A DNA stretch of 43,499 bases from Candidatus Saccharimonadota bacterium. GTDB taxonomy: Bacteria; Patescibacteriota; Saccharimonadia; Saccharimonadales; UBA10212. Of this stretch, positions 7,716 to 33,300 are shown piece by piece. The position numbers and the translations under genes were made by a program. The notes beneath the pieces are model-generated. The model was not told the DNA's origin. It saw only the letters and a program-made list of their open reading frames with translations, and did not search any database. Positions within the stretch are counted from its first letter, which is position 1, and each line of letters begins with the position of its first letter. Where the stretch lies: contig JACRBB010000029.1 in assembly GCA_016234585.1 (NCBI GenBank), positions 1 to 43,499 of the forward strand, given 5' to 3'.

Positions 7716-9320
7716 ATGTCTCAGGATGCTCGCAGGGACGAAGAAGTAACAACTCAGCGCCGGGCCGGTGTGCTGGGCATGAGCTATGTTGATACCAGCA
7801 AATTACAAAAACAACTCTTCAAAGACGTCCTGCCCATGCCGGAGCTATACAGTCTAAGAGTTGTTCCACTGGCAGCTGATAGCCACTACATCCAATTTGG
7901 GGTCACCACCCGTACCTCACAGCAGACAATTAACAATCTTAGAGCTCGATTTTCAGACCAAAGGCTTGACTTTTCGATAATTTCGGATACCGGCTACGGC
8001 GAGTATATGAAGCTTTATGATCCGCCTAAGCAAGTAAGCTATCAAGACATTGGTCTAGTTGTTGGCGGTGATGAAGGTCAAAAGATGGTAGAGTCTGTTA
8101 GCGCCACACTGAATCAGGTTCGGGCCGACGACATGCTAGCCTATCTGGTCCAGCAAGCCTATAAACTGAAAGCCAGTGACATCCATATGGAATGCCAGCG
8201 TGACAACGTGCGTATCCGGTTCCGTGTAGACGGCGTCTTGCATCCGGTAGCTTTCATGAGTCAAGACAAATATCACCACCTGGTAGCTGCCGTAGCCAGC
8301 TCCGCCAATGTTTCCACCAGCGCCAACGACGCCCAGACCGGCCATATCAGCCGCAGTTACAAACTGGCTACTGGCGAGGATGTGGTACTGAACCTGCGCA
8401 TCGAAACCGTGCCGACCGTTTATGGCATGGACGTCGTCATGCGGCTTTTCAACCTAAGACTTGAGCTTTTCAAGTTGGAAAACCTTGGCCTATCCGCTCA
8501 GGAGCTAGAAGTGGTCGGTGATGTCATAAAGCACCCTACTGGCATGGTCTTGATTGTTGGCCCAACCGGTTCAGGCAAGACAACCACCCTTTATTCGCTG
8601 ATTAACACCTTAAATACCCCGGAACGAAAAATCATCACCCTGGAAGATCCAGTAGAGTACAACATGCCCGGTGTCGTTCAAATCCCGGTTGCTGGCGATC
8701 TGAAAACCCAGAACTTCGCCGAAAGGTTACGGGCCGTCTTACGTCTGGATCCCGATGTGGTGATGGTCGGGGAAATCCGCGACCAAGATACCGCCAAGAC
8801 CGCCTTACAGGGAGCGCTAACCGGCCATTTGGTGCTTAGTACTTTCCACGCCAGCAATGCCGCCGCGGCCTTAACGCGCATGCTTGATTTGGTCGGCATC
8901 AACCCTCTGTTCGCCAGCGCTATGCACTTGATTATGGCCCAGCGGCTGGTGCGCCGCCTAGACGATACCACCAAACAACCTTATAAACCGGATGATGCGC
9001 TTAAGCAGCAGCTTCAGTCTGTCATCGACAGCATGCCGCCGTCCATCCAAAAACCTGACATTAACCAGATTACTTTATATAAACCGGGCAGCTCCGACAA
9101 AAACCCCTTCGGATACACCGGCCAGCTGGCTCTTCGTGAGCAGTTAATTATGACTCCGGGCGTTCAACAGCTACTTAGGTTACCGCCTAACCAGATTACA
9201 ACCGAGATTTTGCAAGCCAAAGCCGTGCAAGAAGGCATGCGGACCATGCTACAAGACGGCATATTGAAGGCCTTCCAGGGGCTGACGACTCTGGAAGAAG
9301 TCTACAGGGTTGTAGGCTAA
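7716..9320 (+). CDS. Type IV pilus assembly / T2SS ATPase (PilB/GspE family)
   Basis: ASDIH, RFRVDGVL, Walker A GPTGSGKT, TLEDPVE, LRLDPDVVMVGEIRD, TGHLVLSTFH; start taken at MSQDARR. Confidence 0.92.
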   Translation: MSQDARRDEEVTTQRRAGVLGMSYVDTSKLQKQLFKDVLPMPELYSLRVVPLAADSHYIQFGVTTRTSQQTINNLRARFSDQRLDFSIISDTGYGEYMKLYDPPKQVSYQDIGLVVGGDEGQKMVESVSATLNQVRADDMLAYLVQQAYKLKASDIHMECQRDNVRIRFRVDGVLHPVAFMSQDKYHHLVAAVASSANVSTSANDAQTGHISRSYKLATGEDVVLNLRIETVPTVYGMDVVMRLFNLRLELFKLENLGLSAQELEVVGDVIKHPTGMVLIVGPTGSGKTTTLYSLINTLNTPERKIITLEDPVEYNMPGVVQIPVAGDLKTQNFAERLRAVLRLDPDVVMVGEIRDQDTAKTALQGALTGHLVLSTFHASNAAAALTRMLDLVGINPLFASAMHLIMAQRLVRRLDDTTKQPYKPDDALKQQLQSVIDSMPPSIQKPDINQITLYKPGSSDKNPFGYTGQLALREQLIMTPGVQQLLRLPPNQITTEILQAKAVQEGMRTMLQDGILKAFQGLTTLEEVYRVVG

Positions 9321-16465: not shown

Positions 16466-18319
16466 ATGAAGAGATTCGGGCGGCTTAACAGGCCCTTGCT
16501 GTATCTGTTAATCATTGGTCTGGTGTTTTTAGGGGGCTTGCGGTTCGCTAAAGCCGATGTAAACGACTTCACTATTTCAAACTTCAGCGCCGACTACTAT
16601 CTAAGCCGGGATACGGCCAAAACCAGCACCATGGACGTCGTAGAAAAAATTGATGTAGAGTTTCCGAACTATGATCAAAACCACGGTATACTGCGGGCCA
16701 TACCCAAAAGCTACCAGGGCCACACAGTCAGCTTAAAAGTTAATAGCATAAAGGATGGCAGCGGCGGTTCGCTGAACTACACTACCTACGGTCAGAATGA
16801 CAACCTGGTTTTAAAAATCGGTAATCCGGACCAATACGTTCGTGGTCTGCAAACCTACGTGATCAGTTATTCCATGCGTAACGTGGCCAGCATATTAGCC
16901 GATCACGAAGAGCTTTACTGGGATGTCAATGGGGATCAGTGGGCTCAGCCCACGGGTACGGTCACTGCCAAGATACATGTTCCCAGCGGTTTGCTGGGCC
17001 AGCTCCAGGATCGCCAAACCTGTTATGCCGGATCTTATGGCTTCAACAGCTCAGGCGCCTGCTCAATCAACCGGGATACCACCTCAACCGAGACTGTCAT
17101 ATCCGCCACGGCCAGCAACTTGCAACCAAATCAAACTCTGACTTTCGTGCTCGGGTTTAATAGGGGCACTTTCGTGCTTGGTCCGGAAATCGCTCACGAA
17201 AAGCTGGTCCGTAAAGTCAAAACCATCGCGGCGGTTACGGTCATAGTTTTGCTGCCGCTGGTTGCTTTTATGTTCATGTTCAACCGGTGGCGGCGTTTTG
17301 GCAATGACCCTAAAGGCAGGGGTGTTATCGTACCAGAGTATGCTCCACCAAAAGGTTTTAATGTATTAAGTGCAGACTTTATGCTCAATGAAAAAATGAG
17401 CCAAAAAACGTTTTCGGCGGCCATTATAGAGTTAGCAGTTAACCGATATGTAAATATCTACGAAACAAAACATAAGAAAGCTTTGCGCCGGGATACGACA
17501 GATTACGAGCTAGAACTAATCAAAGACCCCGCCGACCTGTCGTCAGAACTTAAACAGGTTATTGATATGGTGTTTTCAACCGGCCAGACCGGTGAAAGGG
17601 TAAAACTTGCCGACATAAAAAAATCAACCACCCGCTCAGTGGAGTTGTATGAGCAGATGCGCAAGCTCGAGGATTCGTTGGCAAGCAGTTTGCATGAACT
17701 CGGTTACTTTGTTAAAAATCCTAAAAAAGTACGCAACGGTTATCGGATGTGGGCTATAGCAATTTTCTTTCTAGCATTTGCTTCAATTTTCGCCGCCATC
17801 TCTATTTCGGCGTGGCTTGGAGCGTTAAGCGCCGGTCTTATATTAGCCTCGCTGATCGTGTTTGGTTTTTCCTTTGTTATGCCAGCCAGAACGGAGACAG
17901 GAGTTCAGGTGCATGATGACTTGCTGGGGTTAAAAGATTATATAAAACTGGCCGAAGCCGATCGTCTTAAATTTCTGCAGAGCCCCCAGGGGGCAGAGCG
18001 GGTGAGCGACCCGGCAGCGTTCAGCCCCAAGACACCGTCCGAAAAGATTAAACTGTTTGAAAAACTTTTACCATATGCTATGTTATTCGGCCTGGAAAAA
18101 GATTGGGCCAAGCAGTTTAAAGATTTGTATACTCAGCCGCCCGATTGGTACAACGGCAATTGGACAACCTTTAACACGGTTTATCTGGCCTCATCTCTTA
18201 GCGGTTTCGGCAGTTATAGCAGTACTGTCTTTAGCTCGCCGTCTTCCAGCTCCGGCAATGGGTTTTCCGGGGGCGGAGCAGGCGGTGGCGGTGGAGGAGG
18301 CGGCGGTGGGGGTTGGTAG
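16466..18319 (+). CDS. DUF2207 family membrane protein
   Basis: Signal peptide, HGILRAIP, ELYWDVNG, TM helices, LLPYAMLFG, terminal GGGAGGGGGGGW. Confidence 0.9.
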   Translation: MKRFGRLNRPLLYLLIIGLVFLGGLRFAKADVNDFTISNFSADYYLSRDTAKTSTMDVVEKIDVEFPNYDQNHGILRAIPKSYQGHTVSLKVNSIKDGSGGSLNYTTYGQNDNLVLKIGNPDQYVRGLQTYVISYSMRNVASILADHEELYWDVNGDQWAQPTGTVTAKIHVPSGLLGQLQDRQTCYAGSYGFNSSGACSINRDTTSTETVISATASNLQPNQTLTFVLGFNRGTFVLGPEIAHEKLVRKVKTIAAVTVIVLLPLVAFMFMFNRWRRFGNDPKGRGVIVPEYAPPKGFNVLSADFMLNEKMSQKTFSAAIIELAVNRYVNIYETKHKKALRRDTTDYELELIKDPADLSSELKQVIDMVFSTGQTGERVKLADIKKSTTRSVELYEQMRKLEDSLASSLHELGYFVKNPKKVRNGYRMWAIAIFFLAFASIFAAISISAWLGALSAGLILASLIVFGFSFVMPARTETGVQVHDDLLGLKDYIKLAEADRLKFLQSPQGAERVSDPAAFSPKTPSEKIKLFEKLLPYAMLFGLEKDWAKQFKDLYTQPPDWYNGNWTTFNTVYLASSLSGFGSYSSTVFSSPSSSSGNGFSGGGAGGGGGGGGGGGW

Positions 18320-18324
18320 GCCTC

Positions 18325-19323
18325 ATGAGAACATCTAAACCAAGCCCCAGAACATACGAAAGTTTACCCAGAAGCACTGCTTCTAAAGAACGCCGGGGCT
18401 GGAAACGATCCCGGTCACTAAAGTGGCTTTTAGCTGCTGCGGGAATTACATTCGGCGCGGCAAGCATGGGCCTTAGCTTCAATCACGGTAAACTAGAGCA
18501 TTATCCGGCCCATGGCATGCTTGAAGACCCAGATTATCGCTCCCAAACAATAGTAACTGCTAATCTAGCCGGTATCTCTGACCTGGATAAACAGCTCACT
18601 TACGTAGGCAAAGAAATAAAACCCGCCGCTATTTGCTTAGAGGAAGTTAAGCGCTCAGATGTGGGTAGGTATATGAATGATTTAGAAGGCTATAGTGGTG
18701 AATATGCCGAGGCGGATTCCAGTGTGGACTTCCCGGATGGTTTTGGTAATTTGGTGCTAGTTAGATATCCTCAGACCAAACCAGCAGACATGCAGCAACT
18801 AGATGGTGATTTTGGCTGGCAAAATTTTACCACTCATATTTTCAGCAGATCATTGGGCCAAAATATTCGTGATTCGTATAGTGAAAATCGGGCCGCGGTA
18901 GCTGTGCATTTTAATATGCCCATGAAAGATGGCGCCCAGCTACCCGTAGATCTTATTGCGTCGCATATTGCGGCGGACTCTAACAATGGAGTGGGTAGAC
19001 GCCAAATTATTTCTTTAAAACGTTTTGTAGATGAAGAATTGGACAGTGACCAGGATTCTTTAGCCGTTGTTTGCGGAGATTTAAATCGAATACCCAACCA
19101 AGCGCGAAAAATCTTTAGTTTCCCCACCTGGGAAGTTCCTTTGATTGGCCCGACTTCGGTTAATTCCGGGAAACAGATAGACCAAATTATACTAAGACCT
19201 GAAATAAAAGGCGGCAATCGCGATATTGCCAGATATGTCATTGCCAAGACTGGTTTAGTCCATGGATTAATAACTGATCACCGCGGCGCCTATGCAACCT
19301 TCACCGAAGTACCCCTGAAATAA
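18325..19323 (+). CDS. Membrane-anchored endonuclease/exonuclease/phosphatase (EEP) family protein
   Basis: TANL, CLEEV, GNLVL, SH, CGDLN, IDQI, TDH motif series. Confidence 0.75.
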   Translation: MRTSKPSPRTYESLPRSTASKERRGWKRSRSLKWLLAAAGITFGAASMGLSFNHGKLEHYPAHGMLEDPDYRSQTIVTANLAGISDLDKQLTYVGKEIKPAAICLEEVKRSDVGRYMNDLEGYSGEYAEADSSVDFPDGFGNLVLVRYPQTKPADMQQLDGDFGWQNFTTHIFSRSLGQNIRDSYSENRAAVAVHFNMPMKDGAQLPVDLIASHIAADSNNGVGRRQIISLKRFVDEELDSDQDSLAVVCGDLNRIPNQARKIFSFPTWEVPLIGPTSVNSGKQIDQIILRPEIKGGNRDIARYVIAKTGLVHGLITDHRGAYATFTEVPLK

Positions 19324-19394
19324 ATAACCAAACAGCACATAAGTGACCTCATACTACAAGCGAGTATAATTAATAGGTCTAAGTGGAGAGTAAA

Positions 19395-20126
19395 ATGGCT
19401 AAGGCTAAGACACAACAGCAAAAATGGGATTTTTCGGAGCTAAATGCTTTATTTATAAACTGCACGCTGAAAAAATCACCGGAGGTTAGTAATACTGAGG
19501 GTTTAATGAATGTCAGCAAAAAAATTATGGATAAAAACGGTGTAAGAACTGAAGTGATTCGGGCAGTGGACCATGATATTGCCGTTGGTGTTTATCCGGA
19601 TATGACTGAGCATGGTAGCAAAACAGATGAGTGGCCTAAGCTTTATAAAAAGGTAATGGCTGCCGATATTTTAGTGCTTTGCGGACCAATATGGCTTGGT
19701 GACAACAGCTCCGTAATGAAACATATTATTGAGCGGCTTTATGGTAATTCCAGCCTGCTTAATAAAAACGGACAGTATGCCTACTATGGCAAAGTTGGCG
19801 GCTGTATTATTACCGGTAATGAAGATGGTGTTAAGCACTGTGCCATGAATATTCTTTACAGCCTTCAGCATCTGGGTTATGTAGTGCCGCCGCAGGCGGA
19901 CAGCGGCTGGATAGGCGAAGCAGGTCCGGGCCCCAGTTATTTAGATAAAGACTCTGGCGGGCCAGATAACGACTTCACAAACCGTAATACCACATTCATG
20001 AGCTGGAATTTAATGCATCTAGCTAAAATGTTAAAGGAGGCTGGCGGTATACCGGCCTATGGTAACCAGCGTTCAGAGTGGGACGCCGGCTGCAAATTTG
20101 ATTTTGAGAATCCAGAGTATCGCTAA
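19395..20126 (+). CDS. Flavodoxin-like NADPH-dependent FMN reductase family protein
   Basis: NCTLKKSPEVSNT, ADILVLCGPIWLG, ITGNEDGVKH. Confidence 0.85.
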   Translation: MAKAKTQQQKWDFSELNALFINCTLKKSPEVSNTEGLMNVSKKIMDKNGVRTEVIRAVDHDIAVGVYPDMTEHGSKTDEWPKLYKKVMAADILVLCGPIWLGDNSSVMKHIIERLYGNSSLLNKNGQYAYYGKVGGCIITGNEDGVKHCAMNILYSLQHLGYVVPPQADSGWIGEAGPGPSYLDKDSGGPDNDFTNRNTTFMSWNLMHLAKMLKEAGGIPAYGNQRSEWDAGCKFDFENPEYR

Positions 20127-20178
20127 TTTTTAATATTTCTGGTGGGAGTATAATTATGGGTGTAAGGGAGCGACGAAT

Positions 20179-20349
20179 ATGCCCGAAAAAGCCCAACCAA
20201 AAATAGACAAACTAGAGCAAAAGAAACGGCTGCGCCAATTTTATAACCACCCTATACTGGTCAAATCCAGGACCAAAGGCCGGCAGTTACTCGTATCCCT
20301 GGGCCCCAATAGGGGCGCCAGAAGTTCACTCCGGTCTCGCCACCGCTAA
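20179..20349 (+). CDS. Small basic hypothetical protein (56 aa)
   Basis: Own translation MPEKAQPKIDKLEQKKRLRQFYNHPILVKSRTKGRQLLVSLGPNRGARSSLRSRHR*; AAGGGAG and TATAAT upstream; below the ORF-track cutoff. Confidence 0.4.
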   Translation: MPEKAQPKIDKLEQKKRLRQFYNHPILVKSRTKGRQLLVSLGPNRGARSSLRSRHR

Positions 20350-20435
20350 GCTACCTGTCCCTGGATGTCTCATCCGGTCTAATCTAATAACTAACGCTTA
20401 CTTATGGCAAAAGTCCACATTTTTTTGCTACAGTA

Positions 20436-20651
20436 GTGCTGATGAGTAAGTTAAGTTGGCCGCGCAGAGCTAGTACTAAATGGTTACTGTTCTTTTGGTC
20501 GTTATCTTTGATATCCGTCGTATGCATATATTTTAATGTCGGGTCAGATAAACAGGGCGCCGAGAATGGCGGTATAGTATGGCTACTGCCGGCTTTAGTG
20601 TTCGCAATTACCGCACTGGCAATATCTATTGTGCGGTCGTTTCGGCGTTAA
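20436..20651 (+). CDS. Small two-TM hypothetical protein
   Basis: Two hydrophobic helices; fills the intergenic gap. Confidence 0.5.
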   Translation: MLMSKLSWPRRASTKWLLFFWSLSLISVVCIYFNVGSDKQGAENGGIVWLLPALVFAITALAISIVRSFRR

Positions 20652-20720
20652 GCGGTTATCGCTTGTAGTATAATATTATTAGCTGTTTTGCAAGAAGAGC
20701 ACCAGACTTGAGAGGTGAAA

Positions 20721-21242
20721 ATGAGAAAGGTATTGTGTGCTGTCACAATGACAGGGGCAGCACTGGCTCTTCCGTTAGGCGGAGGAGCAGCTCAAGCATC
20801 CGTGACCGATACGCTTCGAGCCTGCCTGAGGTACGAAGGGCGCGCCTACGAGGTGTGTACCGCATATGTCGGCAACTCCTCGCTACTGGCACTGGTTCCC
20901 TACTATAAGTGGGCCAACTCATCCAATCCAGCTCGTGCTGTGGCCGTCACCAACCGCCTGCGCTCTCGCTACTACGGAGCGGCTCGACGCTTGATTGCCG
21001 GGCGGGTCAACGGCTGGCCGGCTGGCGAGAACAAGGTCTCCATACCGCTTTTCACGATCCTGAGCGTCAGCTCCGATCTCGAGCACAATCGCGCGATCCT
21101 GAGGACGCGGGAAACATGGAGAGTTCGAACCAAGAGCAATGGTCGGACCATCTACCGCGAGATCGGTCGTCCTCACCGCATTACCATGAAGAGAGTCCAA
21201 GGACTCGTTCTTCACAAGTGGGTGGTCTCCGCGATCAGGTAG
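20721..21242 (+). CDS. GC-rich secreted hypothetical protein
   Basis: GAGGTG RBS, signal peptide ending AQA, Cys pair, strongly GC3-biased codons, own terminator. Confidence 0.75.
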   Translation: MRKVLCAVTMTGAALALPLGGGAAQASVTDTLRACLRYEGRAYEVCTAYVGNSSLLALVPYYKWANSSNPARAVAVTNRLRSRYYGAARRLIAGRVNGWPAGENKVSIPLFTILSVSSDLEHNRAILRTRETWRVRTKSNGRTIYREIGRPHRITMKRVQGLVLHKWVVSAIR

Positions 21243-21263
21243 CTCGCGCAGCAAGACAGCATG

Positions 21264-21289
21264 GGCCGGCCCCACAAGGCCGGCCTTTT
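21264..21289 (+). terminator. Rho-independent terminator
   Basis: GGCCGGCC-ccacaa-GGCCGGCC-TTTT. Confidence 0.8.
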
Positions 21290-21347
21290 GTTATTTATAC
21301 TAAAAATATTCAATCTACTTTGGGTTGCCAAAGTAGCAAAGCAACCA

Positions 21348-21430
21348 GGCTGCGTTTTTTCTTGATGTAATCTCACTCATGGAAAGCTGATGCCTGTCCA
21401 GCACTTATGTATAAGTGCTGTGGCCCGGAC
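21348..21430 (+). repeat. Left copy of 83-bp inverted repeat
   Basis: Exact reverse complement of 28387-28469 by manual alignment; contains palindrome CAGCACTTAT-GT-ATAAGTGCTG. Confidence 0.95.
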
Positions 21431-21483
21431 CCAAGAAAGTAAAACATTGCAAAGTGTAACCAAGTATTGTTTAATATATAAAT

Positions 21484-21894
21484 ATGTATAAGCCAAGTAT
21501 TAGGTTTAATGGTGAGCAGTACCAGGGGCTCGAGGATCATCTTGGAGATCTTGCCGAAAAGCTTGTTGGTATTGTGAATGCTACGGCATTCAACAGACTA
21601 AAGGAAAATGCCCTACGCGATCCGACAGATATTGAGGTGACACCAGTCATGTTAGAAAGGCCCTCATTTATTGTACGGTCTTGGCATGAGACAGAGTCTC
21701 CAGGGGGGTCGGTAGGCATATTACAGCCACAGGATCTAACCCTAGAAGTTAAGATGGACAAGGAAGACATGTACCTAACTACCGAAGAGGATTCAAGCTA
21801 CAGGTTAACAACAAGGGAAGCGTTCTTGATGGTCACCATAGGTGGTACGGCTATGCTTATGGGTGCCTTATCCAACCCAACAATTGGTGAATAA
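21484..21894 (+). CDS. Hypothetical protein with C-terminal hydrophobic segment
   Basis: 136-aa ORF with AT-rich promoter-like upstream; no recognised motif. Confidence 0.55.
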   Translation: MYKPSIRFNGEQYQGLEDHLGDLAEKLVGIVNATAFNRLKENALRDPTDIEVTPVMLERPSFIVRSWHETESPGGSVGILQPQDLTLEVKMDKEDMYLTTEEDSSYRLTTREAFLMVTIGGTAMLMGALSNPTIGE

Positions 21895-21950
21895 ACAAGC
21901 TGTACAACTCCTTATAACAGGGGTATAATGCGGGTTAATTGGAGTTTTGA

Positions 21951-22385
21951 ATGTCTAACAAAAAAATGACTGAGGACTTTGTTAAAAACTCAGTCATCAA
22001 ATGGCTATCCAGAAATGGTTGGGGGCATTTTGAATTTGATGAACTACACACCCACGGTGTTGATATAAGGGCGCGGAACGTTAGATACAGTCGCTATTTT
22101 TTTATTGAGGCAAAAGGCGAAAGCATTAACCGCTCTGGTCTAGAAGTAGCTTTTATATATTCGCTTGGACAGATTATCACGCGGATGAAAGATAGTGGCT
22201 TAACAAGAAATTATTACGGCTTAGCCCTGCCTGCGAACAGTGCAAAAATTGCACTGAGACGAATTTCATGGCAAGTCGCTAAAAAACTTTTACTCTATAT
22301 ATTCTCCGTTAGTGCAGACGGAAAAGTTATTCAGTATAGCTGGAGAGAAATAAAGGATCGACAAACGATCTCAGCAGGATCATAA
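21951..22385 (+). CDS. PD-(D/E)XK restriction-endonuclease-fold protein
   Basis: E..V..WL..GW, GVDIRA..FFIEAKG, LGQII motif spacing. Confidence 0.75.
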   Translation: MSNKKMTEDFVKNSVIKWLSRNGWGHFEFDELHTHGVDIRARNVRYSRYFFIEAKGESINRSGLEVAFIYSLGQIITRMKDSGLTRNYYGLALPANSAKIALRRISWQVAKKLLLYIFSVSADGKVIQYSWREIKDRQTISAGS

Positions 22386-22413
22386 TGGTTGCTGTAGATG
22401 ATTAAATGTAAAA

Positions 22414-23253
22414 ATGGCTAAGCCATTCCTCAAGTGGGTTGGTGGTAAAACTCAGCTGCTAGGCCAGTTTGCCGACATACTGCCGCCTCAGACAAAAATA
22501 AAAAAATATTATGAACCATTCGTGGGTGGAGGGGCTGTATTCTTCTACTTAGAACCGGCTGAGGCAGTTATCAATGATCTAAATTCACACCTCATTTATT
22601 TGTATCGTCACGTAAAGAGCAGTCTTCAAGAACTTATAGATGAACTAGAAATAATACAGAGTCAATATCTTCCTTTAAATCATGAAGAACGAAAAAACTA
22701 TTACTATGAGGCGAGGATCAAGTATAACAAGATAAAAACAGATGACTCAGTTACAAAGTCAGCGCTATTAATCTTTCTTAATAAAACCTGCTTTAACGGA
22801 ATGTATAGAGAAAATCCTAAAGGTGAATATAATATTCCATTTGGTCGCAACAATACGGTAGCTATTTTTGATCCAGCAATTCTGGAAAATGCCTCTAGGG
22901 TACTTCAGCAAACAAAAATTATGTATGGGTCTTACAAAAATTCTCTACGGTCGGCAGGAAACGGCGACTTTGTATATTTAGATCCGCCCTATGTTCCCTT
23001 GAATAACACCACCGCAAACTTTACACAGTACGTCAGTGAGGATTTTAATACGCGGCAACACGACAAGCTGAAAATAATTTTTGATGAGTTGGAGAAAAGA
23101 GGATGCAAAGTCATGCTCAGCAACTCGGATACAAAACTGGTAAGGAGTAAGTATAAAGAGTACAATATAACTCCAGTTTACGCAAACCGATTCGTAAATT
23201 GCAAACCAGGTGGTAGGGGTAAAATTAGCGAACTAGTCATAACTAACTATTAA
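22414..23253 (+). CDS. dam: Dam/DpnM-family (D12 class) DNA adenine methyltransferase
   Basis: PFLKWVGGKTQL, EPFVGGGAV, NKTCFNGMYRENPKGEYNIPFG, YLDPPY. Confidence 0.93.
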   Translation: MAKPFLKWVGGKTQLLGQFADILPPQTKIKKYYEPFVGGGAVFFYLEPAEAVINDLNSHLIYLYRHVKSSLQELIDELEIIQSQYLPLNHEERKNYYYEARIKYNKIKTDDSVTKSALLIFLNKTCFNGMYRENPKGEYNIPFGRNNTVAIFDPAILENASRVLQQTKIMYGSYKNSLRSAGNGDFVYLDPPYVPLNNTTANFTQYVSEDFNTRQHDKLKIIFDELEKRGCKVMLSNSDTKLVRSKYKEYNITPVYANRFVNCKPGGRGKISELVITNY

Positions 23254-23256
23254 CAG

Positions 23257-25290
23257 ATGTTAAAAGAACTTAAATTAAAACAGGTTTACAGCTCAGAAGC
23301 AGATAACTTGATACGGGACTTCTATGTACCTGTATTATCCACAGCCAAAAAATATCAAAGAATTACTGGGTATTTTTCGTCCAGAGCCATATTAGCAGCG
23401 AGTCAAGGAATGGCTAACTTCTTCATGAACGGCGGACAATATCAACTCATCATGGGGGCACAGCTTACACCAGAAGATTATAAAACTATAAAAAACACAG
23501 ACCTAACCTTAGAAAAAGTACTATTAGAAAAGTTATATTTCGATCCAGCTCATTTTATAACTGAAATAGAAGTAGATTACTTACGAGTATTCAGTCAGCT
23601 TTTATTATCTGGTTCGTTAGAGATCAAAATAGCAATAGTGGATAAAGACAACGAGGGAATATTCCACGAAAAAGTGGGTATTTTAGAAGACAAAGCTGGA
23701 GATAAGATAAGTTTTAGTGGATCTATCAATGAGACAGCCGCAGGTTGGGGGGCCAATATTGAGGAGTTCAAGGTCTTTAGAAGTTGGCTACCTGAAGAAA
23801 AGCCTTACCAAGAGAGAGACATAGAAAGATTCAATGCATACTGGAATAATGAATCGCACCTCAAGGCTCTACCTTTGCCGGAAGCACTCAAGGATAAGAT
23901 ACTAAAATGTTCTTCTGCACATGAAGATGTGAAGCATTCCTTAAAAAAGATTCAGCATTACGAAGAAGATCTAAGGCCTGCACCAAAAACACTGTATCGT
24001 TATCAGGAAGACGCGGTTGCTAGCTGGGTGAAGAACAACTACAGAGGTATCTTTGAGATGGCGACAGGCACCGGGAAGACCCTCACAGCCTTGGGGGCTA
24101 TCCAAAAAATATATGATTTCAATAAAAGGTACTTCTGTGTCGTAGGTGTCCCCCAGAAACATCTCGTCAGACAATGGAGAACCGATATAGAAATTCAGCT
24201 ACCCAAAGCTCATATTTTGGAGGCACACAGCTCGGCTGGGGAATGGAGAGAAAAAATACGAGATCTAGTTAGTGACTATGAAGATAATATTGTTAACGAA
24301 GTAGTCATAATCGCTACCCATGCAACTATGTCCTCTAAAGATTTCATAGATATCGTTGATAAGTCCGATCTTAGTTTGATCGCTGATGAAATGCATAATA
24401 TGGGTGCAGCGCAGACTAGAAAAGGCTTAACGAATTACTACACCTATCGGATCGGACTAAGTGCTACGCCACTTAGGGCGTACGATGAGGAAGGAACGGA
24501 TTTCCTAGAGCAATACTTCAGTGGAGCTATATTTAAGTATCCTCTGGACCAAGCGATTAAGGATGGATGGTTAACGCCATACAAATACTATCCTATCTAT
24601 GTCGAACTAGATTCTGATGAGACACAGGAGTATGTTCAACTGTCTAAAAAAATCACCCAGGCATCCTTTATTGAAGGAGGAGGTGAATATCTAGAAAGAT
24701 TGCTGCTAATTCGAAGTAGAATTATCAAAAAGTGTCGTAATAAGACAATTGCTTTTGAGCATTTGCTAGAAAGGCTGGTGAGCGAGGATGGAGAAATAAA
24801 TCATCTGCTTGTTTATTGCGACCAAGGACAGCAGCTAGAGGATGCCCAGGTAATAGTGAATAAAAAAGGTATTATTAATCATAGGTTTACTCAATCTGAG
24901 AGCATCAGTGATAGAAAAAAAATTCTCGATCTTTTTGATGATGGATCCTACCAGTGTCTCTTGGCTATAAAGTGCTTAGATGAGGGAGTAAATGTCCCTT
25001 CAACCAAACAAGCAATTATACTTGCGAGTACTACCAACCCTCGAGAGTATATCCAAAGGAGAGGACGAGTCTTGCGTAAATATCCAGGCAAGGAGTTTGC
25101 AATAATTTACGACTTTGTGGTGGTACCCGACAGCTCAACGCTCGATGCTGAAACATTTAAATTCGAGAGAAAAATAATAGCAGGCGAGCTAAGACGTATA
25201 AAGGATTTTATAGAAAGCTCTGATAATAAAGCGGAGGGCCTAAACAGTATTTATAGAATAACTGACAAATATCAGGTATATTTTGAGTAA
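23257..25290 (+). CDS. PLD(HKD)-nuclease / SF2 DExH helicase fusion (PbeA-like)
   Basis: GYFSS, FHEKVGILED (HxKx4D), FSGSINET; MATGTGKT, DEMH, GLSATP, LDEGVNVP, QRRGRVLR. Confidence 0.9.
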   Translation: MLKELKLKQVYSSEADNLIRDFYVPVLSTAKKYQRITGYFSSRAILAASQGMANFFMNGGQYQLIMGAQLTPEDYKTIKNTDLTLEKVLLEKLYFDPAHFITEIEVDYLRVFSQLLLSGSLEIKIAIVDKDNEGIFHEKVGILEDKAGDKISFSGSINETAAGWGANIEEFKVFRSWLPEEKPYQERDIERFNAYWNNESHLKALPLPEALKDKILKCSSAHEDVKHSLKKIQHYEEDLRPAPKTLYRYQEDAVASWVKNNYRGIFEMATGTGKTLTALGAIQKIYDFNKRYFCVVGVPQKHLVRQWRTDIEIQLPKAHILEAHSSAGEWREKIRDLVSDYEDNIVNEVVIIATHATMSSKDFIDIVDKSDLSLIADEMHNMGAAQTRKGLTNYYTYRIGLSATPLRAYDEEGTDFLEQYFSGAIFKYPLDQAIKDGWLTPYKYYPIYVELDSDETQEYVQLSKKITQASFIEGGGEYLERLLLIRSRIIKKCRNKTIAFEHLLERLVSEDGEINHLLVYCDQGQQLEDAQVIVNKKGIINHRFTQSESISDRKKILDLFDDGSYQCLLAIKCLDEGVNVPSTKQAIILASTTNPREYIQRRGRVLRKYPGKEFAIIYDFVVVPDSSTLDAETFKFERKIIAGELRRIKDFIESSDNKAEGLNSIYRITDKYQVYFE

Positions 25291-25298
25291 GGCAAATT

Positions 25299-25496
25299 AT
25301 GAGAATACTAAACCCTGAGATAGAGGCCCACATTAACGCACTACCCGATACATACAGAAGAGAGAAGAAACTTCTGAAGGATCTTCTCGTGTTTGAGCAC
25401 GAGCACTCAGACAAAGCAAACTACGCATTCAAACAAGAAATTCTACAAATGGTAGAAGAAGTGCTGAGAGATTTTCCAGATGATACAAATAAATAA
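25299..25496 (+). CDS. Small helical protein of the helicase-ATPase module (PbeB-like position)
   Basis: 65 aa, 8 nt after the helicase stop and overlapping the ATPase start. Confidence 0.7.
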   Translation: MRILNPEIEAHINALPDTYRREKKLLKDLLVFEHEHSDKANYAFKQEILQMVEEVLRDFPDDTNK

Positions 25497-27420
25497 AATA
25501 CGGATTAAAAATTTCCGCCAATACAGGTCTCTGGAACTGGCCTTTCCAGACGACAAAGGCATCTACTTATTTATTGGGAAAAATGGGATGGGAAAATCCA
25601 ACTTCCTGAACGCTATTTGCTGGTGTTTATACGAAGATATGCCTTTCCGCGCTCATGATAACACCGACAACAAATTAAATATTTATAATGAGGAATCTCT
25701 AAACGCCTCGGATAGCAAGGTAATCTTAGCTGAGGTGGAGCTAGAGGTAACAATTGATAAAACTCAGTATAAATTCCAACGTAAACTTCACAATCTGCCA
25801 GTGGGGAATACCAATACAGACTTTAAAGCTTTCAGATTAGATAATGGCGACTGGCAGTTAATACCTAATGCAACGCACTACATTGATAATTTTCTGCCTA
25901 GGTCTTTACGACAATTCTTCTTGTTTGACGGCGAAGGTGTACGAGGTCTATTCAAGGGGGACTACTCGACTAATCTAAAAATGAGTATCTGGAAGGTCTC
26001 TCATATTGACCTGCTTAATACCACGATCAATCACCTGGATACGGTTGCTAGTGAGTTGAGAAAAACTCTTGCGCTTGAAATGCCCGAATTAGAATCCACC
26101 ATACAAGCAATATCTGAGCACGAAACGCTGATTCAAAGAAAAAAGAGTGATCTTTTCGAAAATTCAAAGCAAAAAAAGGAGCTCGAATTAAATCTCCATA
26201 AAATCTCACAGAGATATAAAGAACATGCCAAATATAGGGAACTACAGATTAAACGTGAGTCTTTAGAAAACGAGAAGCATCGTTTGCTTAGTCAGCTTGA
26301 GGATATACGACGTGACGTAACGGCATTATATGTATCGTTGGGTCCCTTCGTATTCGTGGCAGATGAACTTTCAAAATATACTTCACAGATTGGTTTGCAA
26401 AGAGATAAAGGAACTATACCTGCGTCTATAAAACCCACCTTAATCAACGACTTACTTGAGACCAAGATGTGCATTTGCGGACGACATATCAGCCCCGCGG
26501 AAGAGTCTCATTTGCACCAACTACTTAACCAGAACCAGGAGGCGGACAAGAAAGAGTTCCTGGTCGATGATGGCTACATACTCGGCAATTTAAATCATAC
26601 GATATCTAGCAGCTACGAGAGTTTGCTATCCAAAAGAAAAACGATTAGAGAGTTAGAGCAACAAAATGAAAACATTGAGCGTGAACTTAAGGAGATAAGT
26701 GATAATCTGGTTAGTGCCCCAGAGGCCGAAATCGGTAATATAGAAACTCAGATCAGGATTATGCACGAAGAAGGAGGCAACTTGGCCGTGGAAGCCTCTA
26801 AACTTGTGCAAGAGATACAAGACTACGAACAAAAGCTAAAAGAATCTAAAGACGAAGTCCAAAAAATGGCTGAGACACAAGAGAAATTAAAAAAAGATAC
26901 TCAAAAACTTAGTTTGCTGGAATCAACTGTTGAGAAAGCTAAAAAAGTACGAGACAAGGTAATCGACCAGGTTCGAAAAAACGTGTCATTCCACACCAAT
27001 CAATATTTCCACGATCTAATGTGGAAAAGTGACTTTACTAAACTTGAATTCACTGACGGCTATAAGATAATAATTCAGAAGGAAGGAGTTGTAGAGCCAA
27101 TCGATCATACTAGATTGAGCAATGGTGAAACCAAAGTTTTAGGATTTGCCACTATAAAGGCCTTGACTGAACTATCCGGTTTCGAGAACTTCCCTGCTTT
27201 TATAGATGCACCTGTAGAGCAATTAGATCAGCAGGTAGAAAAAAATCTATTAGATTTATTACCAAACTTTATGCCCGAAAAACAAGTATTTGTCTTTTCA
27301 CTGGACGGTGAGAATATAGTTGAATTCGGGAAAGAAAAGATACCGAATGATAGACTATTTAAACTAGTGAGAGAACCAAATTCGTTAAGTAGCAAGATCG
27401 TGAATTACTATGGCAACTGA
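25480..27420 (+). CDS. Rad50/SMC-like ABC ATPase with CxC hinge (DndD/PbeC-like)
   Basis: IKNFRQY, Walker A GKNGMGKS, FFLFDGE, coiled coils around CICG, signature LSNGE, Walker B FIDAP. Confidence 0.9.
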   Translation: MIQINKIRIKNFRQYRSLELAFPDDKGIYLFIGKNGMGKSNFLNAICWCLYEDMPFRAHDNTDNKLNIYNEESLNASDSKVILAEVELEVTIDKTQYKFQRKLHNLPVGNTNTDFKAFRLDNGDWQLIPNATHYIDNFLPRSLRQFFLFDGEGVRGLFKGDYSTNLKMSIWKVSHIDLLNTTINHLDTVASELRKTLALEMPELESTIQAISEHETLIQRKKSDLFENSKQKKELELNLHKISQRYKEHAKYRELQIKRESLENEKHRLLSQLEDIRRDVTALYVSLGPFVFVADELSKYTSQIGLQRDKGTIPASIKPTLINDLLETKMCICGRHISPAEESHLHQLLNQNQEADKKEFLVDDGYILGNLNHTISSSYESLLSKRKTIRELEQQNENIERELKEISDNLVSAPEAEIGNIETQIRIMHEEGGNLAVEASKLVQEIQDYEQKLKESKDEVQKMAETQEKLKKDTQKLSLLESTVEKAKKVRDKVIDQVRKNVSFHTNQYFHDLMWKSDFTKLEFTDGYKIIIQKEGVVEPIDHTRLSNGETKVLGFATIKALTELSGFENFPAFIDAPVEQLDQQVEKNLLDLLPNFMPEKQVFVFSLDGENIVEFGKEKIPNDRLFKLVREPNSLSSKIVNYYGN

Positions 27421-27844
27421 ATCAGTTAAATACCCACAGTTTATTAATATGGATGCTGAGATAAAGGCTAAATATCTAGATCCGCTAGTATCAGATCCTA
27501 ATACGATATTCTTCAAACAAGACCTAGGGGAAGCATATCTAATGGCTGGTGTCTATGGCTTTATGTTTGATCTAAAAAAAACGACCAAAAAGATAGCCAA
27601 TATTAGAGTGTTCGATAGGTGGCAGGATCAATACAAAGTCTTATTTAGAGTTATTGCAGCTGCAGATAAGAAGTATGATTTCGAAGTTCTATTAGATGGT
27701 GCAAAGACTTTAAAAATTGTTGAAGAGTACGCTAATGGCGGAGCTCAAAGACTATATGAAGATGCCACCTTATTAAACTCCTCAGAAACGCTTGAGAAAA
27801 AAATATGGGGAAAAATAAAAGCAATTAGCTCCAAGACTGAGTAG
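27410..27844 (+). CDS. Dnd-associated small protein (PbeD/DndE-like position)
   Basis: Overlaps the ATPase stop; YLMAGVYG and IVEEYANGG resemble dnd-associated protein 4 as recalled. Confidence 0.65.
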   Translation: MATESVKYPQFINMDAEIKAKYLDPLVSDPNTIFFKQDLGEAYLMAGVYGFMFDLKKTTKKIANIRVFDRWQDQYKVLFRVIAAADKKYDFEVLLDGAKTLKIVEEYANGGAQRLYEDATLLNSSETLEKKIWGKIKAISSKTE

Positions 27845-27896
27845 CCCAGCCCTATAGCCTGAACAATGTCGGTGTGGAGTATATTTTGTCACACAA

Positions 27897-28017
27897 TAGT
27901 TTGCTGCATCCTTAGATGTTATTGATCAGGCTACCAGAGTCATTATTAACGGCAAAAGTAGTTCATTATTATGATAAAAACCCTGAAGAAATTCCTCTCA
28001 TCGAATCTCAAAAATGA
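27897..28017 (+). pseudogene. Possible decayed C-terminus of a T5orf172/GIY-YIG-like gene
   Basis: (*)FAASLDVIDQATRVIINGK then +1 shift VVHYYDK; resembles a recalled EWFxxPLxVIDxA..I..G.I..Y.YD ending. Confidence 0.3.
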
Positions 28018-28071
28018 TGGGTAGACACTTGACTTGTTAAGTATTCTTTAGTTTTTAAGATTCGGATTCGA

Positions 28072-28095
28072 GCCATTCGATAGGCTCAGGCTAAA
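28072..28095 (+). repeat. Degenerate REP-like palindrome
   Basis: GCCATTCGATAGGCTCAGGCTAAA, similar to copies at 32231-32254 (minus) and 39981-40004. Confidence 0.5.
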
Positions 28096-28124
28096 GAAAA
28101 CAGAGAGGGATAATTAGTTTCGTG

Positions 28125-28180
28125 AAAAGAAGAACCGGGACTGGCCGGGGAGGATTACTTTCGCACCTCCCCGGCCAGTC
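28125..28180 (-). terminator. Strong GC-rich terminator hairpin
   Basis: GACTGGCCGGGGAGG (28139-28153) / CCTCCCCGGCCAGTC (28166-28180) perfect 15-bp stem, then TTCTTCTTTT on the minus strand. Confidence 0.7.
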
Positions 28181-28334
28181 ACCGATGCTAGCTCGGTTTT
28201 GGTATTGCGAGCACCAGCTAGCACAACCACGATGTGCGAGGTGTTGGACGAATCGCTTTCGAGAAAAGACCAGTGTTTCGGCTGGACTAGTCAGGATTGC
28301 GACGGGGCCATATCCTCGCTCGAACGTGGTTGGT
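28125..28334 (-). ncRNA. Candidate ~210-nt structured non-coding RNA
   Basis: Upstream TTGCTA-17-TATGAT promoter, nested stems CAACCACG/CGTGGTTG and GCGAGG/CCTCGC, hairpin TGCTAGCT/AGCTAGCA, 15-bp terminal hairpin plus U-rich tail; no credible ORF. Confidence 0.55.
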
Positions 28335-28340
28335 AAAAAA

Positions 28341-28369
28341 ATCATAATGTCTTTTTCCATGTTTAGCAA
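28341..28369 (-). promoter_or_regulatory. Sigma70-type promoter
   Basis: Minus strand TTGCTA-17 nt-TATGAT. Confidence 0.55.
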
Positions 28370-28386
28370 ATGGTTGCCCGAGTTGA

Positions 28387-28469
28387 GTCCGGGCCACAGC
28401 ACTTATACATAAGTGCTGGACAGGCATCAGCTTTCCATGAGTGAGATTACATCAAGAAAAAACGCAGCC
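28387..28469 (-). repeat. Right copy of 83-bp inverted repeat
   Basis: Exact reverse complement of 21348-21430. Confidence 0.95.
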
Positions 28470-28608
28470 CGGCGTTTGGCCACACCTTTACGCTAAAGGT
28501 GTGAAAAATGTTTGCCGACTTTACAAAGTAGCCCAAGCCTCTTATAAATCCGTAAGAATAAATATTTCTTGCATATCGGCGTATAATTATAGGTAAGTAG
28601 GAGGGTCT

Positions 28609-32133: not shown

Positions 32134-32186
32134 CCCTCCGTCGTCAAGACTATGGAGGGTCCTCCGAAGCTTTTTGCGAAGGAGGA
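32134..32186. repeat. Two adjacent REP-like palindromes inside the riboswitch
   Basis: CCCTCCGTCGTCAAGACTATGGAGGG and TCCTCCGAAGCTTTTTGCGAAGGAGGA, related hairpins with CCTCC/GGAGG stems. Confidence 0.65.
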
Positions 32187-32230
32187 AGGGTTCTGGCCCG
32201 ATGACCCGCCGGCAACCCAGTCAAGCAGAG

Positions 32231-32254
32231 GTTTACCCTGAGCTTGTCGAAGGG
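32231..32254 (-). repeat. REP-like palindrome in riboswitch P3
   Basis: Reverse complement CCCTTCGACAAGCTCAGGGTAAAC, closely related to 39981-40004. Confidence 0.7.
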
Positions 32255-32295
32255 TGCCACATCCAGCCCGGATTCCGGGATAGATAAGCTTACTG

Positions 32296-32337: not shown

Positions 32338-33300
32338 ATGTCAACCTACAAAACGGCCGAGAGTGTATCGCCAAAACACCCGGATAAACTGTGCGATCAG
32401 ATATCCGATGCCATACTGGACGCTTATCTTAAAAAAGACCCAAAGGCTCGAGTGGCAGTTGAGGCGGTAGGCGGTCACGGCGAGGTTTTTGTAGTTGGCG
32501 AAGTGACGGCGCATGCCAAAATTGACGTTGAGCCGATAGTCAGGCGACTGGCAGGCGATAAGGTTAAAATACGACACAAAATCGTGCATCAAAGCCCGGA
32601 AATCGCCGTTAAGGTAGACAGTGGCGGAGCCGGTGACCAGGGTATTATGGTAGGTTACGCGACATCGGAAACAAATGAGCTATTGCCGCTGGAAGTGGTC
32701 TTATCCCGGCAGCTTAACCAATACATATTTAAGCGCTGGCCGTATGACGGTAAAACGCAGGTGACCTTAAAGGATGGTAAGATTACCGCTGTTGTAGCCA
32801 GCTTTCAGCATGCTAAACAAGTTGAGCTAGATGAAGCCGTTAAGAAATGGCTTAAAGATAAGCCTAAACTTGACGATGTCCAAATTTACGCAAACCCGTT
32901 TGGGGATTGGAATCAAGGCGGCTTTGACGCCGACAGCGGACTGACCGGCCGTAAACTTGTTGTTGATAATTACGGACCTCAAGTACCGGTGGGCGGCGGG
33001 GCATTTTCTGGCAAGGATGCTACCAAAGTGGACCGCTCCGGCGCCTATATGGCCCGGCGGATTGCCGTGGATTACATTAAAAAACATAAAGCCAAAGAAG
33101 TATTTTGTTACTTGGCCTATGCCATCGGTGTGGCCGAGCCGTTGGAAGCCACGGTAGTCTTGGACGGTAAGTCGCAACTTGTGAAAGGCTATGACTTAAC
33201 GCCAAAAGGTATTATTGAGTACCTGGATTTACGTAAACCCCAGTACGAACAAACTGCCCGTTATGGCCACTTTGGACACCACTTCCGCTGGGACTCGTAA
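32338..33300 (+). CDS. metK: S-adenosylmethionine synthetase (compact form)
   Basis: ESVSPKHPDKLCDQISD, GAGDQG, DSGLTGRK, GGGAFSGKDATKVDRSGAY, ARYGHFG. Confidence 0.96.
   Translation: MSTYKTAESVSPKHPDKLCDQISDAILDAYLKKDPKARVAVEAVGGHGEVFVVGEVTAHAKIDVEPIVRRLAGDKVKIRHKIVHQSPEIAVKVDSGGAGDQGIMVGYATSETNELLPLEVVLSRQLNQYIFKRWPYDGKTQVTLKDGKITAVVASFQHAKQVELDEAVKKWLKDKPKLDDVQIYANPFGDWNQGGFDADSGLTGRKLVVDNYGPQVPVGGGAFSGKDATKVDRSGAYMARRIAVDYIKKHKAKEVFCYLAYAIGVAEPLEATVVLDGKSQLVKGYDLTPKGIIEYLDLRKPQYEQTARYGHFGHHFRWDS

Follow-up and report, generated by a model that had tools for sequence, protein, structure and literature searches.

Inverted copies of a structured intergenic repeat frame a Dam methylase-PbeABCD island in a Candidatus Saccharimonadota genome

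The stretch of DNA analysed here, referred to as the window, comprises 43,499 nt from a Candidatus Saccharimonadota bacterium (GenBank assembly GCA_016234585.1, contig JACRBB010000029.1). It is the entire contig C21 of the genome denoted G000, whose assembly has 546 kb in 35 contigs and is 78% complete; G001 is a genome of the same genus, other G-numbers stand for relatives, and L-numbers for loci of these relatives. The window contains a defence island between two inverted arms at 21345-21434 and 28383-28472. By repeat search, the arms are 90 nt long, 98% complementary, and spaced by 6948 nt. The alignment places the mismatches at arm positions 3 and 87, leaving a perfect 83-nt core (21348-21430 and 28387-28469), and the arm-to-arm similarity stops sharply at both sides; both methods thus confirm the original prediction of a perfect 83-bp inverted repeat, about 90 bp with two mismatches when extended. 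The arms are the cores of two copies of a structured intergenic repeat that has an outer hairpin (P0), a spacer, and a closing stem. The covariance model of its 5' module (P0, spacer, and the closing-stem 5' strand) is called R1. The island and its borders comprise the following features, with the strand in brackets:

21263-21286 (+): intrinsic-terminator-like GC-rich hairpin with a T-run, 3' of orf175 (20715-21242) and outside the left copy
21308-21367 (+): match of the left copy to R1, 71.7 bits
21315-21336 (+): P0 hairpin of the left copy, 9-bp stem and 4-nt loop, of the CTACTTTGG type common in the family
21345-21434 (+): left arm, consisting of the closing-stem 5' strand CCAGGCTGCG, a rod-base stub, a palindrome, and the closing-stem 3' strand with tail GGCCCGGACCC
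21399-21420 (+): inserted palindromic hairpin of the left arm, 22 nt
21484-21894 (+): orf136, first gene of the operon, conserved protein, GC 0.457
21951-22385 (+): orf144a, first low-GC cargo gene, 144 aa, GC 0.395, directly upstream of the methylase
22414-23253 (+): Dam-like N6-adenine DNA methyltransferase (Pfam PF02086, 6.4e-58; PADLOC MTase_II, 3.7e-93)
23257-25290 (+): PbeA, a PLD/HKD nuclease fused to a superfamily 2 (SF2) helicase (PADLOC PbeA, 1.8e-223; Pfam ResIII, Helicase_C, PLDc_2)
25299-25496 (+): 65-aa protein in the PbeB position, assigned by position only, no family match
25480-27420 (+): PbeC, DndD-like / CxC ABC ATPase (PADLOC PbeC, 7.6e-96)
27410-27844 (+): PbeD-like protein (DndE cognate), 144 aa, assigned by a weak, sub-cut-off match (NCBIfam dnd_assoc_4, 6.6e-4) and by position
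27958-28017 (+): possible relic of a type IIG restriction-methylase, its final ~19 codons with the stop codon, borderline match to the gene of the G001 island
28027-28051 (+): palindromic motif ACTTGACTTGTTAAGTATTCTTTAG, which recurs elsewhere in G000
28075-28382 (no strand): hairpin-rich stretch of normal GC (0.51) that separates the cargo from the right arm and has no convincing gene
28383-28472 (-): right arm, built like the left one, its palindrome at 28397-28418
28450-28509 (-): match of the right copy to R1, 63.5 bits
28481-28503 (-): P0 hairpin of the right copy, of the CACACCTTT type, unlike the left P0 and resembling a copy in G012

The genes between the arms follow in the order orf136, a 144-aa ORF, the Dam-class methyltransferase, PbeA, the 65-aa ORF, PbeC, and the PbeD-like ORF. 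PbeA and PbeC in one operon, accompanied by a small PbeB and a DndE-like PbeD, are the composition that defines a PbeABCD system; here PbeB is placed by position and the PbeD match is weak. The cited part of PMC10853773 describes PbeB as a small, fast-evolving protein. No family match was found for orf144a in Pfam, PADLOC, NCBIfam, or PHROGs, and it could belong to the defence cassette as an additional component. As had been noticed, the DNA between the arms is AT-rich: the ORFs at 21951-27844 have a GC content of 0.36-0.395 versus 0.53-0.58 in the flanking genes. The low-GC block extends from 21951 to ~28090, and so its edges are ~500 bp from the left arm and ~300 bp from the right one, while the arms, orf136, and the stretch 28091-28402 have a GC content of 0.43-0.51. 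PbeA is absent from all 48 other genomes of the family, and its best plasmid relatives are 32-39% identical, so the Dam methylase and Pbe cargo is, judged by its sequence, imported. No close PbeA locus turned up in genome contigs.

Two further claims of the original prediction stand. Searches of the nine enclosed ORFs against the four databases named above gave no match to a recombinase family, and no direct repeat that could represent a target-site duplication adjoins the arm ends or the outer hairpins, as judged by eye.

Compared with one another, full copies of the repeat consist of a 9-10-bp P0 hairpin, the spacer, and the closing stem CCGGGC(TGCG)/GCCCGG, followed by ACCC; the multi-stem unit is ~130-230 nt long. 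The closing stem encloses almost nothing (two G024 copies), a ~150-nt rod with conserved internal loops GAACTC / CTCAAACAG, or the window version. The latter retains only the rod base, with the break between two CTCA words relative to a G001 copy, and has an extra 22-nt palindromic hairpin directly before the closing-stem 3' strand; this palindrome has 10-nt arms and a 2-nt centre or, alternatively, 8-nt arms and a 6-nt centre. Both the rod deletion and the inserted palindrome are common to the two window cores, whereas the outer P0 hairpins differ. Outside G000, the palindrome module was found in G012 only, among 401 genomes of the order searched, and a metagenome scan for the palindrome with the tail yielded only two contigs, both carrying the G012 version.

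The fold of the repeat is conserved. For eight full copies from six genomes, RNAalifold predicted 42 pairs, of which 19 had changes on both sides. In this fold 90.1% of the cells are paired, compared to 36-51% when the partners are slid, and the 19 pairs changed on both sides compare to 3-9 when slid; 0 of 500 shuffles reached the observed values. For P0, aligned over 20 copies, 94.4% of the cells are paired, and both sides have changed in seven of nine pairs. Three pairs are G-U in six of the eight copies on the strand shown; although these are inherited states, they hint at a strand-specific RNA or single-stranded DNA fold. We also observed that the loop of the left P0 is complementary to the following spacer (GGTTGC/GCAACC; window 21324-21351). 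It covaries between copies. A run of at least 5 nt is present in 8 of 20 copies, compared to 32 among 380 mismatched controls; the complementarity is thus partly genuine, and it suggests alternative folds.

At the gathering threshold, Rfam 15 gave in the window only a riboswitch located elsewhere, described below. Nine loci with full copies had no Rfam matches at E<=1, and the arm regions at E<=10 gave chance-level rows far below gathering. No published description of the repeat was found in the literature, supplementary files being outside the scope of the search. We rejected the possibility that the repeat is a 5' leader or riboswitch, as the likely -10 boxes of the downstream genes, located by eye, lie past the element and these genes are unrelated. 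A strongly supported fold that is absent from Rfam makes the repeat worth describing whatever its role.

The 5' part of the repeat recurs at unrelated loci in genomes of the family. R1 had 184 matches in 37 of 49 family genomes, with 20 in G028 (the maximum per genome), 17 in G012, 16 in G001, and 8 in G000. The left-arm region had no matches in 24 genomes from other families of the order, and the exact 20-mer from the closing-stem region was present in seven species-representative contigs, six of them titled Saccharibacteria or Saccharimonadales. Repeat motifs had no matches in viral contigs or phage records, and a phage origin of the repeat was rejected on this basis. In the G000 assembly, the 90-nt arm has two full copies and a 54-nt partial match on contig C30. 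The original prediction regarded a high-copy dispersed element as an argument against island-specific ends; this applies to the 5' part, which is dispersed and recurs in relatives, but not to the exact 90-nt variant, represented by these two copies only. The other G000 copies are 77-85% alike, compared to 98% for the window arms, and the arms share derived features. This supports the earlier suggestion of recent duplication or homogenisation.

The copies are usually arranged in pairs that face each other, and the majority of such pairs are empty. Among the 150 matches listed, 15 neighbouring pairs are convergent, one is divergent, and ~15 are tandem, overlapping both-strand matches to palindromic P0s having been left out. 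Eight short convergent pairs, 336-491 bp from outer end to outer end, are formed by two complete copies whose tails face each other across 20-60 nt; these pairs are empty, and their halves are unalike, with best local alignment scores of 20-56.

Such repeats could accumulate passively as a selfish or neutral element similar to repetitive extragenic palindromic (REP) sequences or miniature inverted-repeat transposable elements (MITEs), with accessory regions of a tiny and gene-dense genome as the places where their insertion is tolerated. Bracketing of the island would then be incidental, and the 98% identity of the arms would reflect one recent local copy event. This would explain why, among the 150 matches listed, tandem neighbours are as common as convergent ones, and why repeats also flank ordinary genes, such as yidC, rnpA, and a KH/R3H (Jag-like) gene, located in G028 between two same-strand copies; it also agrees with the variability of the whole 16-32-kb part of the window. 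Passive accumulation does not, however, predict the convergent-to-divergent ratio of 15:1 seen among those 150 matches, the recurrence of the tail-to-tail unit at eight short pairs, or the presence of restriction or defence genes in all three pairs that enclose more than 6 kb, and we regard it as quite unlikely.

The three latter pairs (3/3) are the window and the loci G001:C34 and G026:C26. At G001:C34, arms of 175 nt, 89% alike, surround 8.3 kb with genes encoding a zeta-toxin protein, DUF5674, an orf136 homologue, and a type IIG restriction-methylase (PADLOC, 2.3e-179). At G026:C26, arms of 204 nt, 88% alike, surround a gene of an MmeI-type enzyme (type IIG; PADLOC E = 0) and Hypoth_Ymh, and there is a nested inverted repeat of element tails with 42 perfect bases. 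Inspection by eye revealed no target-site duplication at the outer ends in any of the three. In addition, a 1.27-kb convergent pair in G000 (C35:15705-16970) surrounds a single 233-aa ORF without a Pfam match; its GC content of 0.627 versus ~0.48 in the genome makes it clearly foreign by composition. In G012, the palindrome module adjoins a defence operon at its far end; this operon begins with an orf136 homologue and encodes an OLD/AriA-like ATPase, SRA-HNH, a Schlafen-type helicase, and a MazG-like protein. Locus L037 of this genome (G012:C1:135000-152000) also carries three copies on one strand, at 1082-1259, 3240-3417, and 7952-8129, of which two share 93% identity along 178 nt. The 6.7-kb segment that they flank contains a collagen-repeat gene of 65% GC and a gene of the glyoxalase family. 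Foreign DNA is therefore framed by similar copies in direct orientation as well.

The first gene inside the left arm, orf136, has homologues only in G001 (58% identity), G012, and G069 among the family genomes; the loci are 21484-21894 of the window, L047:4275-4691, L037:14525-14950 (-), and L056:1077-1481. It heads three different defence operons, in the window, G001, and G012, while the G069 homologue is placed between queA and metK, away from defence genes and from the repeat. Since the G069 homologue is adjacent to metK, and an S-adenosylmethionine (SAM) riboswitch with metK is located 10 kb downstream of orf136 in the window, we read orf136 as a resident gene next to a variable interval, probably native rather than cargo. 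A word search of 5.8 billion proteins gave no homologue. The AlphaFold model has a pLDDT of 84, a confident prediction for which no significant structural match was found, and the candidate role of a hidden recombinase was rejected, the best Foldseek hit having E = 0.047 and the best VIA-align hit Z = 5.1 (cystatin/NTF2-like, below the noise guide). The gene appears to start without a ribosome-binding site.

Inverted copies of 83-200 nt break short-read assemblies and leave the orientation of the island ambiguous. The stretch is covered by a single public sequencing run, as k=31-type contigs ending at 21377 and 28440, inside both arms; contig ends ~30 nt within each arm are to be expected when an inverted repeat exceeds the word size. 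The arrangement could be an assembly artefact, a foreign contig joined through the shared repeat, given that the junctions rest on reads spanning 83-90 nt and that the depth is low (~6). However, in this run the depth of most of the island (5-6.5) is similar to that of the flanks (6.8-6.9), which argues against a chimeric join. Moreover, the architecture recurs in independent assemblies of three other genomes, and orf136, inside the segment, has family-specific homologues. An artefact is thus hardly conceivable.

The k-mer graph fits either orientation of the island equally. This could be taken to mean that the arms are recombination sites of a programmed phase-variation switch. The perfect 83-nt inverted repeat, with its copies 7 kb apart, is a competent inversion substrate, and the palindrome, if read as 8-nt arms with a 6-nt centre, might resemble a recombinase core. 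On the other hand, there is no invertase in or near the segment by Pfam, PADLOC, NCBIfam, and PHROGs, and in the assembled genome only one tyrosine recombinase, but no serine recombinase, was found. Furthermore, the operon and its likely promoter are both inside, so that flipping would not obviously switch anything. A programmed switch is therefore very improbable, although the arms might support RecA-driven inversion of the 7-kb segment.

We read the arms neither as island-specific termini nor as the ends of an element that brought the island. Rather, they are, with reasonable though far from full confidence, the cores of two inward-facing resident copies of a lineage-specific repeat, the pair serving as a slot for accessory DNA. 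Of the possibilities initially offered, capture of the island by a dispersed element present in two copies fits best, given the family-wide repeat and at least three other places where it frames foreign DNA. The slot function is suggested by foreign genes between facing copies in several genomes together with many empty pairs. A resident inward-facing pair would be a place where accessory DNA lodges and is replaced, and in the window the slot would hold native orf136 followed by the imported Dam-methylase and PbeABCD cassette. The restriction of identity to the stretch bounded by the closing stem, with differing outer hairpins, points to gene conversion or a local inverted copy rather than to matched transposon ends. 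Recent gene conversion or local inverted duplication between the resident copies would have produced the near-identical 90-nt cores, and the conserved closing-stem strands would bound the converted tract. Accessory DNA might enter by homologous exchange via the conserved strands after transformation, by breakage at the near-palindrome centre, or by means of an unrecognised enzyme. The putative relic just after the Pbe genes, which matches the type IIG gene of G001 (blastn, 33/39 nt, E 8e-5), may be a remnant of earlier cargo and hence of replacement in place.

Several observations weigh against this reading. The similarity of the relic at the protein level (tblastn, 10/19 aa up to the stop codon, E 0.016) is borderline. 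In relatives, the exact site was found neither empty nor with other contents; orf175 is present in 2 of 36 and the bactofilin-like gene on the other side in 4 of 36, and they are never adjacent. The gene neighbouring the G001 island has orthologues without an adjacent repeat in nine other genomes, the gene order at the orthologous site in other genera being different, and the orf136 locus of G069 has no repeat either. Orthologous loci without repeats mean that the repeats do not mark fixed positions and may be mobile themselves. They may also simply accumulate where insertions do no harm. The 1-2-kb pairs (three checked, in G012, G021, and G027) contain small proteins without a defence assignment between dissimilar arms. 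The kilobase-scale pairs around defence cargo have similar arms while the short pairs are dissimilar, as a cargo element with matched ends would predict. The orientation tally was made by eye on 150 listed of the 184 R1 matches, for neighbours at most 12 kb apart on one contig, and the related genomes compared are not independent samples.

G000 as assembled encodes one tyrosine recombinase, which is Xer-like and located on contig C17. No serine recombinase, Y1, IS110, or rve match was found in this 78% complete genome, and there was only a sub-threshold TnpB-like match. IS110 was also absent from five relatives, each with one tyrosine recombinase. The genome of G001 (~0.8 Mb) carries seven diverged paralogues with 65-69% nucleotide identity, encoding proteins of 204-229 aa with a partial Y1 (IS200-like) domain, on contigs C1, C20, C26, C33, C36, C40, and C51. 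One Y1 domain each was found in G012 and G011, and none in G028 or G026, which have 20 and 7 repeats, respectively. In G001, G012, and G011, the repeat does not adjoin the Y1 genes, the exception being one G001 gene at ~700 nt from a copy. We rejected Y1 transposases as mobilisers, since Y1 counts do not track repeat counts.

The main rival explanation is a non-autonomous cargo transposon, similar to a mobile insertion cassette. Here, the two copies would be terminal inverted repeats, and the 7.1-kb unit would have been inserted whole by an enzyme encoded elsewhere. It retains real weight, because the kilobase-scale arms are similar and the repeats are not fixed at orthologous sites. Indeed, all three defence islands (the window, G001:C34, and G026:C26) are situated between unusually similar inverted copies, with whole copies 88-89% alike in G001 and G026, while short pairs are dissimilar. 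The division of copies within a genome into 77-85% subfamilies at non-orthologous sites also suggests mobility, the missing target-site duplication would fit movement of the HUH or recombinase type, and Y1 domains do exist in the genus-mate G001, G012, and G011. Yet in the window, identity begins only at the closing stem, and the outer modules differ. A target-site duplication was not seen by eye, none of the candidate enzymes listed above was found above threshold in the 78% complete genome G000 apart from the single tyrosine recombinase, and among the diverged Y1 genes of G001 one alone is within 1 kb of a repeat. The GC content marks the arms and orf136 as native, the 300 bp next to the right arm are native-like as well, and viral contigs and phage records lack the repeat motifs. 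The originally proposed element moved in trans is weakened by the differing outer hairpins, the native-like GC, and the lack of a target-site duplication and of a transposase among those searched for; we consider it unlikely, but as a serious competitor to the resident slot.

The surroundings of the island are variable as well. We observed that the genes on the left, at 16466-21242 (a DUF2207 membrane protein, an Exo_endo_phos nuclease/phosphatase, an FMN reductase, and the secreted-looking orf175), are poorly conserved. As the bactofilin-like gene on the right is poorly conserved too, the whole 16-32-kb stretch is a variable region. The SAM riboswitch (RF00162) is located at 32168-32290 (+) with a score of 45.5 bits, just above gathering, and metK is directly downstream, at 32338-33300. 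Between the cargo and the right arm, the region 28030-28385 is unconserved in 48 relatives and has no match among the retrieved loci; the ORF at 28091-28402 (-) and an overlapping ORF on the plus strand have no family match and an odd composition, and were treated as non-coding. The near-palindromic motif ACTTGACTTGTTAAGTATTCTTTAG occurs also on contigs C5 and C18 of G000 and in the G011 and G012 loci L018 and L017; in these two genomes, which belong to two other genera, it closely follows repeat elements on their downstream side. The motif could be bound by a protein or act as a promoter-like element.

A bolder version of the slot idea is that the facing pairs form an active recombinase-free cassette system, in which defence and other foreign genes become trapped between the tails, and natural transformation exchanges them among lineages. 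The closing-stem strands would provide portable homology, or else the pair centre would act as a fragile palindrome. We put this forward only tentatively and rather doubt it. If true, it would be a functional counterpart of integrons in genomes with almost no mobile-element enzymes, and cassette swaps would have left their traces in the homogenised arms and in the relic of a restriction gene. Saccharibacteria and other ultra-small episymbionts have few transposases or integrases, yet their defence repertoires differ among close relatives. A folded repeat whose pairs hold defence genes would offer a concrete, testable route for defence turnover, and could serve annotators as a marker for accessory slots in these genomes.

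Defence systems anchored by CxC-ABC and DndE have been described (PMC10853773, in the part cited), and among the systems covered by the cited parts of PMC6459918 and PMC10853773, PbeABCD is the closest to the cargo. As there, PbeA (HKD nuclease and SF2 helicase), a small PbeB-like protein, PbeC, and a DndE-like PbeD follow in the same order. The cited part of PMC10853773 notes dnd-independent versions and methylase-linked versions, and mentions cytosine methylases, whereas the partner in the window is a Dam-class adenine methylase. The window has no dnd modification genes.

As for the repeat, close analogues are found in Neisseria. The arrays of neisserial intergenic mosaic elements (NIMEs), Correia elements, and "minimal mobile elements" involve lineage-specific, hairpin-forming, non-coding intergenic repeats. 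Such repeats frame sites with strain-variable accessory or restriction cassettes, whose exchange is thought to proceed via transformation and homologous recombination. The Saccharibacteria repeat is similar in that intergenic hairpin repeats frame variable cassettes with no recombinase inside. It differs in its ~130-230-nt, strongly covarying multi-stem unit, in the inward-facing pairs, and in the ultra-small host, and has no sequence relation to the neisserial repeats; exchange by transformation is here putative.

REPs are 20-40 nt long and number hundreds per genome, and a flanking REP-associated tyrosine transposase (RAYT) is the hallmark of REPINs. The likeness to REPs, bacterial interspersed mosaic elements (BIMEs), and REPINs lies in extragenic palindromic units, inverted doublets, genome subfamilies, and structure conserved above sequence. 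Unlike REPs, the Saccharibacteria repeat is 130-230 nt long with 8-20 copies per genome, and in contrast to REPINs, no RAYT (Y1) was found in G000, and the number of Y1 genes in relatives does not follow that of the repeats. Inverted repeats around cargo without a transposase are also typical of mobile insertion cassettes and MITEs, but here neither a target-site duplication nor a cognate insertion sequence was found, and the outermost module is outside the arm identity.

The pdif sites, 28-bp XerC/XerD cores, bound gene modules of Acinetobacter plasmids, and share with the window inversely oriented bounding sites and the lack of an internal recombinase; the G000 chromosome has one Xer-like tyrosine recombinase. 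The match to pdif modules is one of geometry alone, as no dif-like 11-6-11 site was identified in the arms, no search with a dif model having been made. Integron cassettes have direct attC sites with IntI/attI nearby, whereas the arms are inverted and the sole tyrosine recombinase is on another contig, C17.

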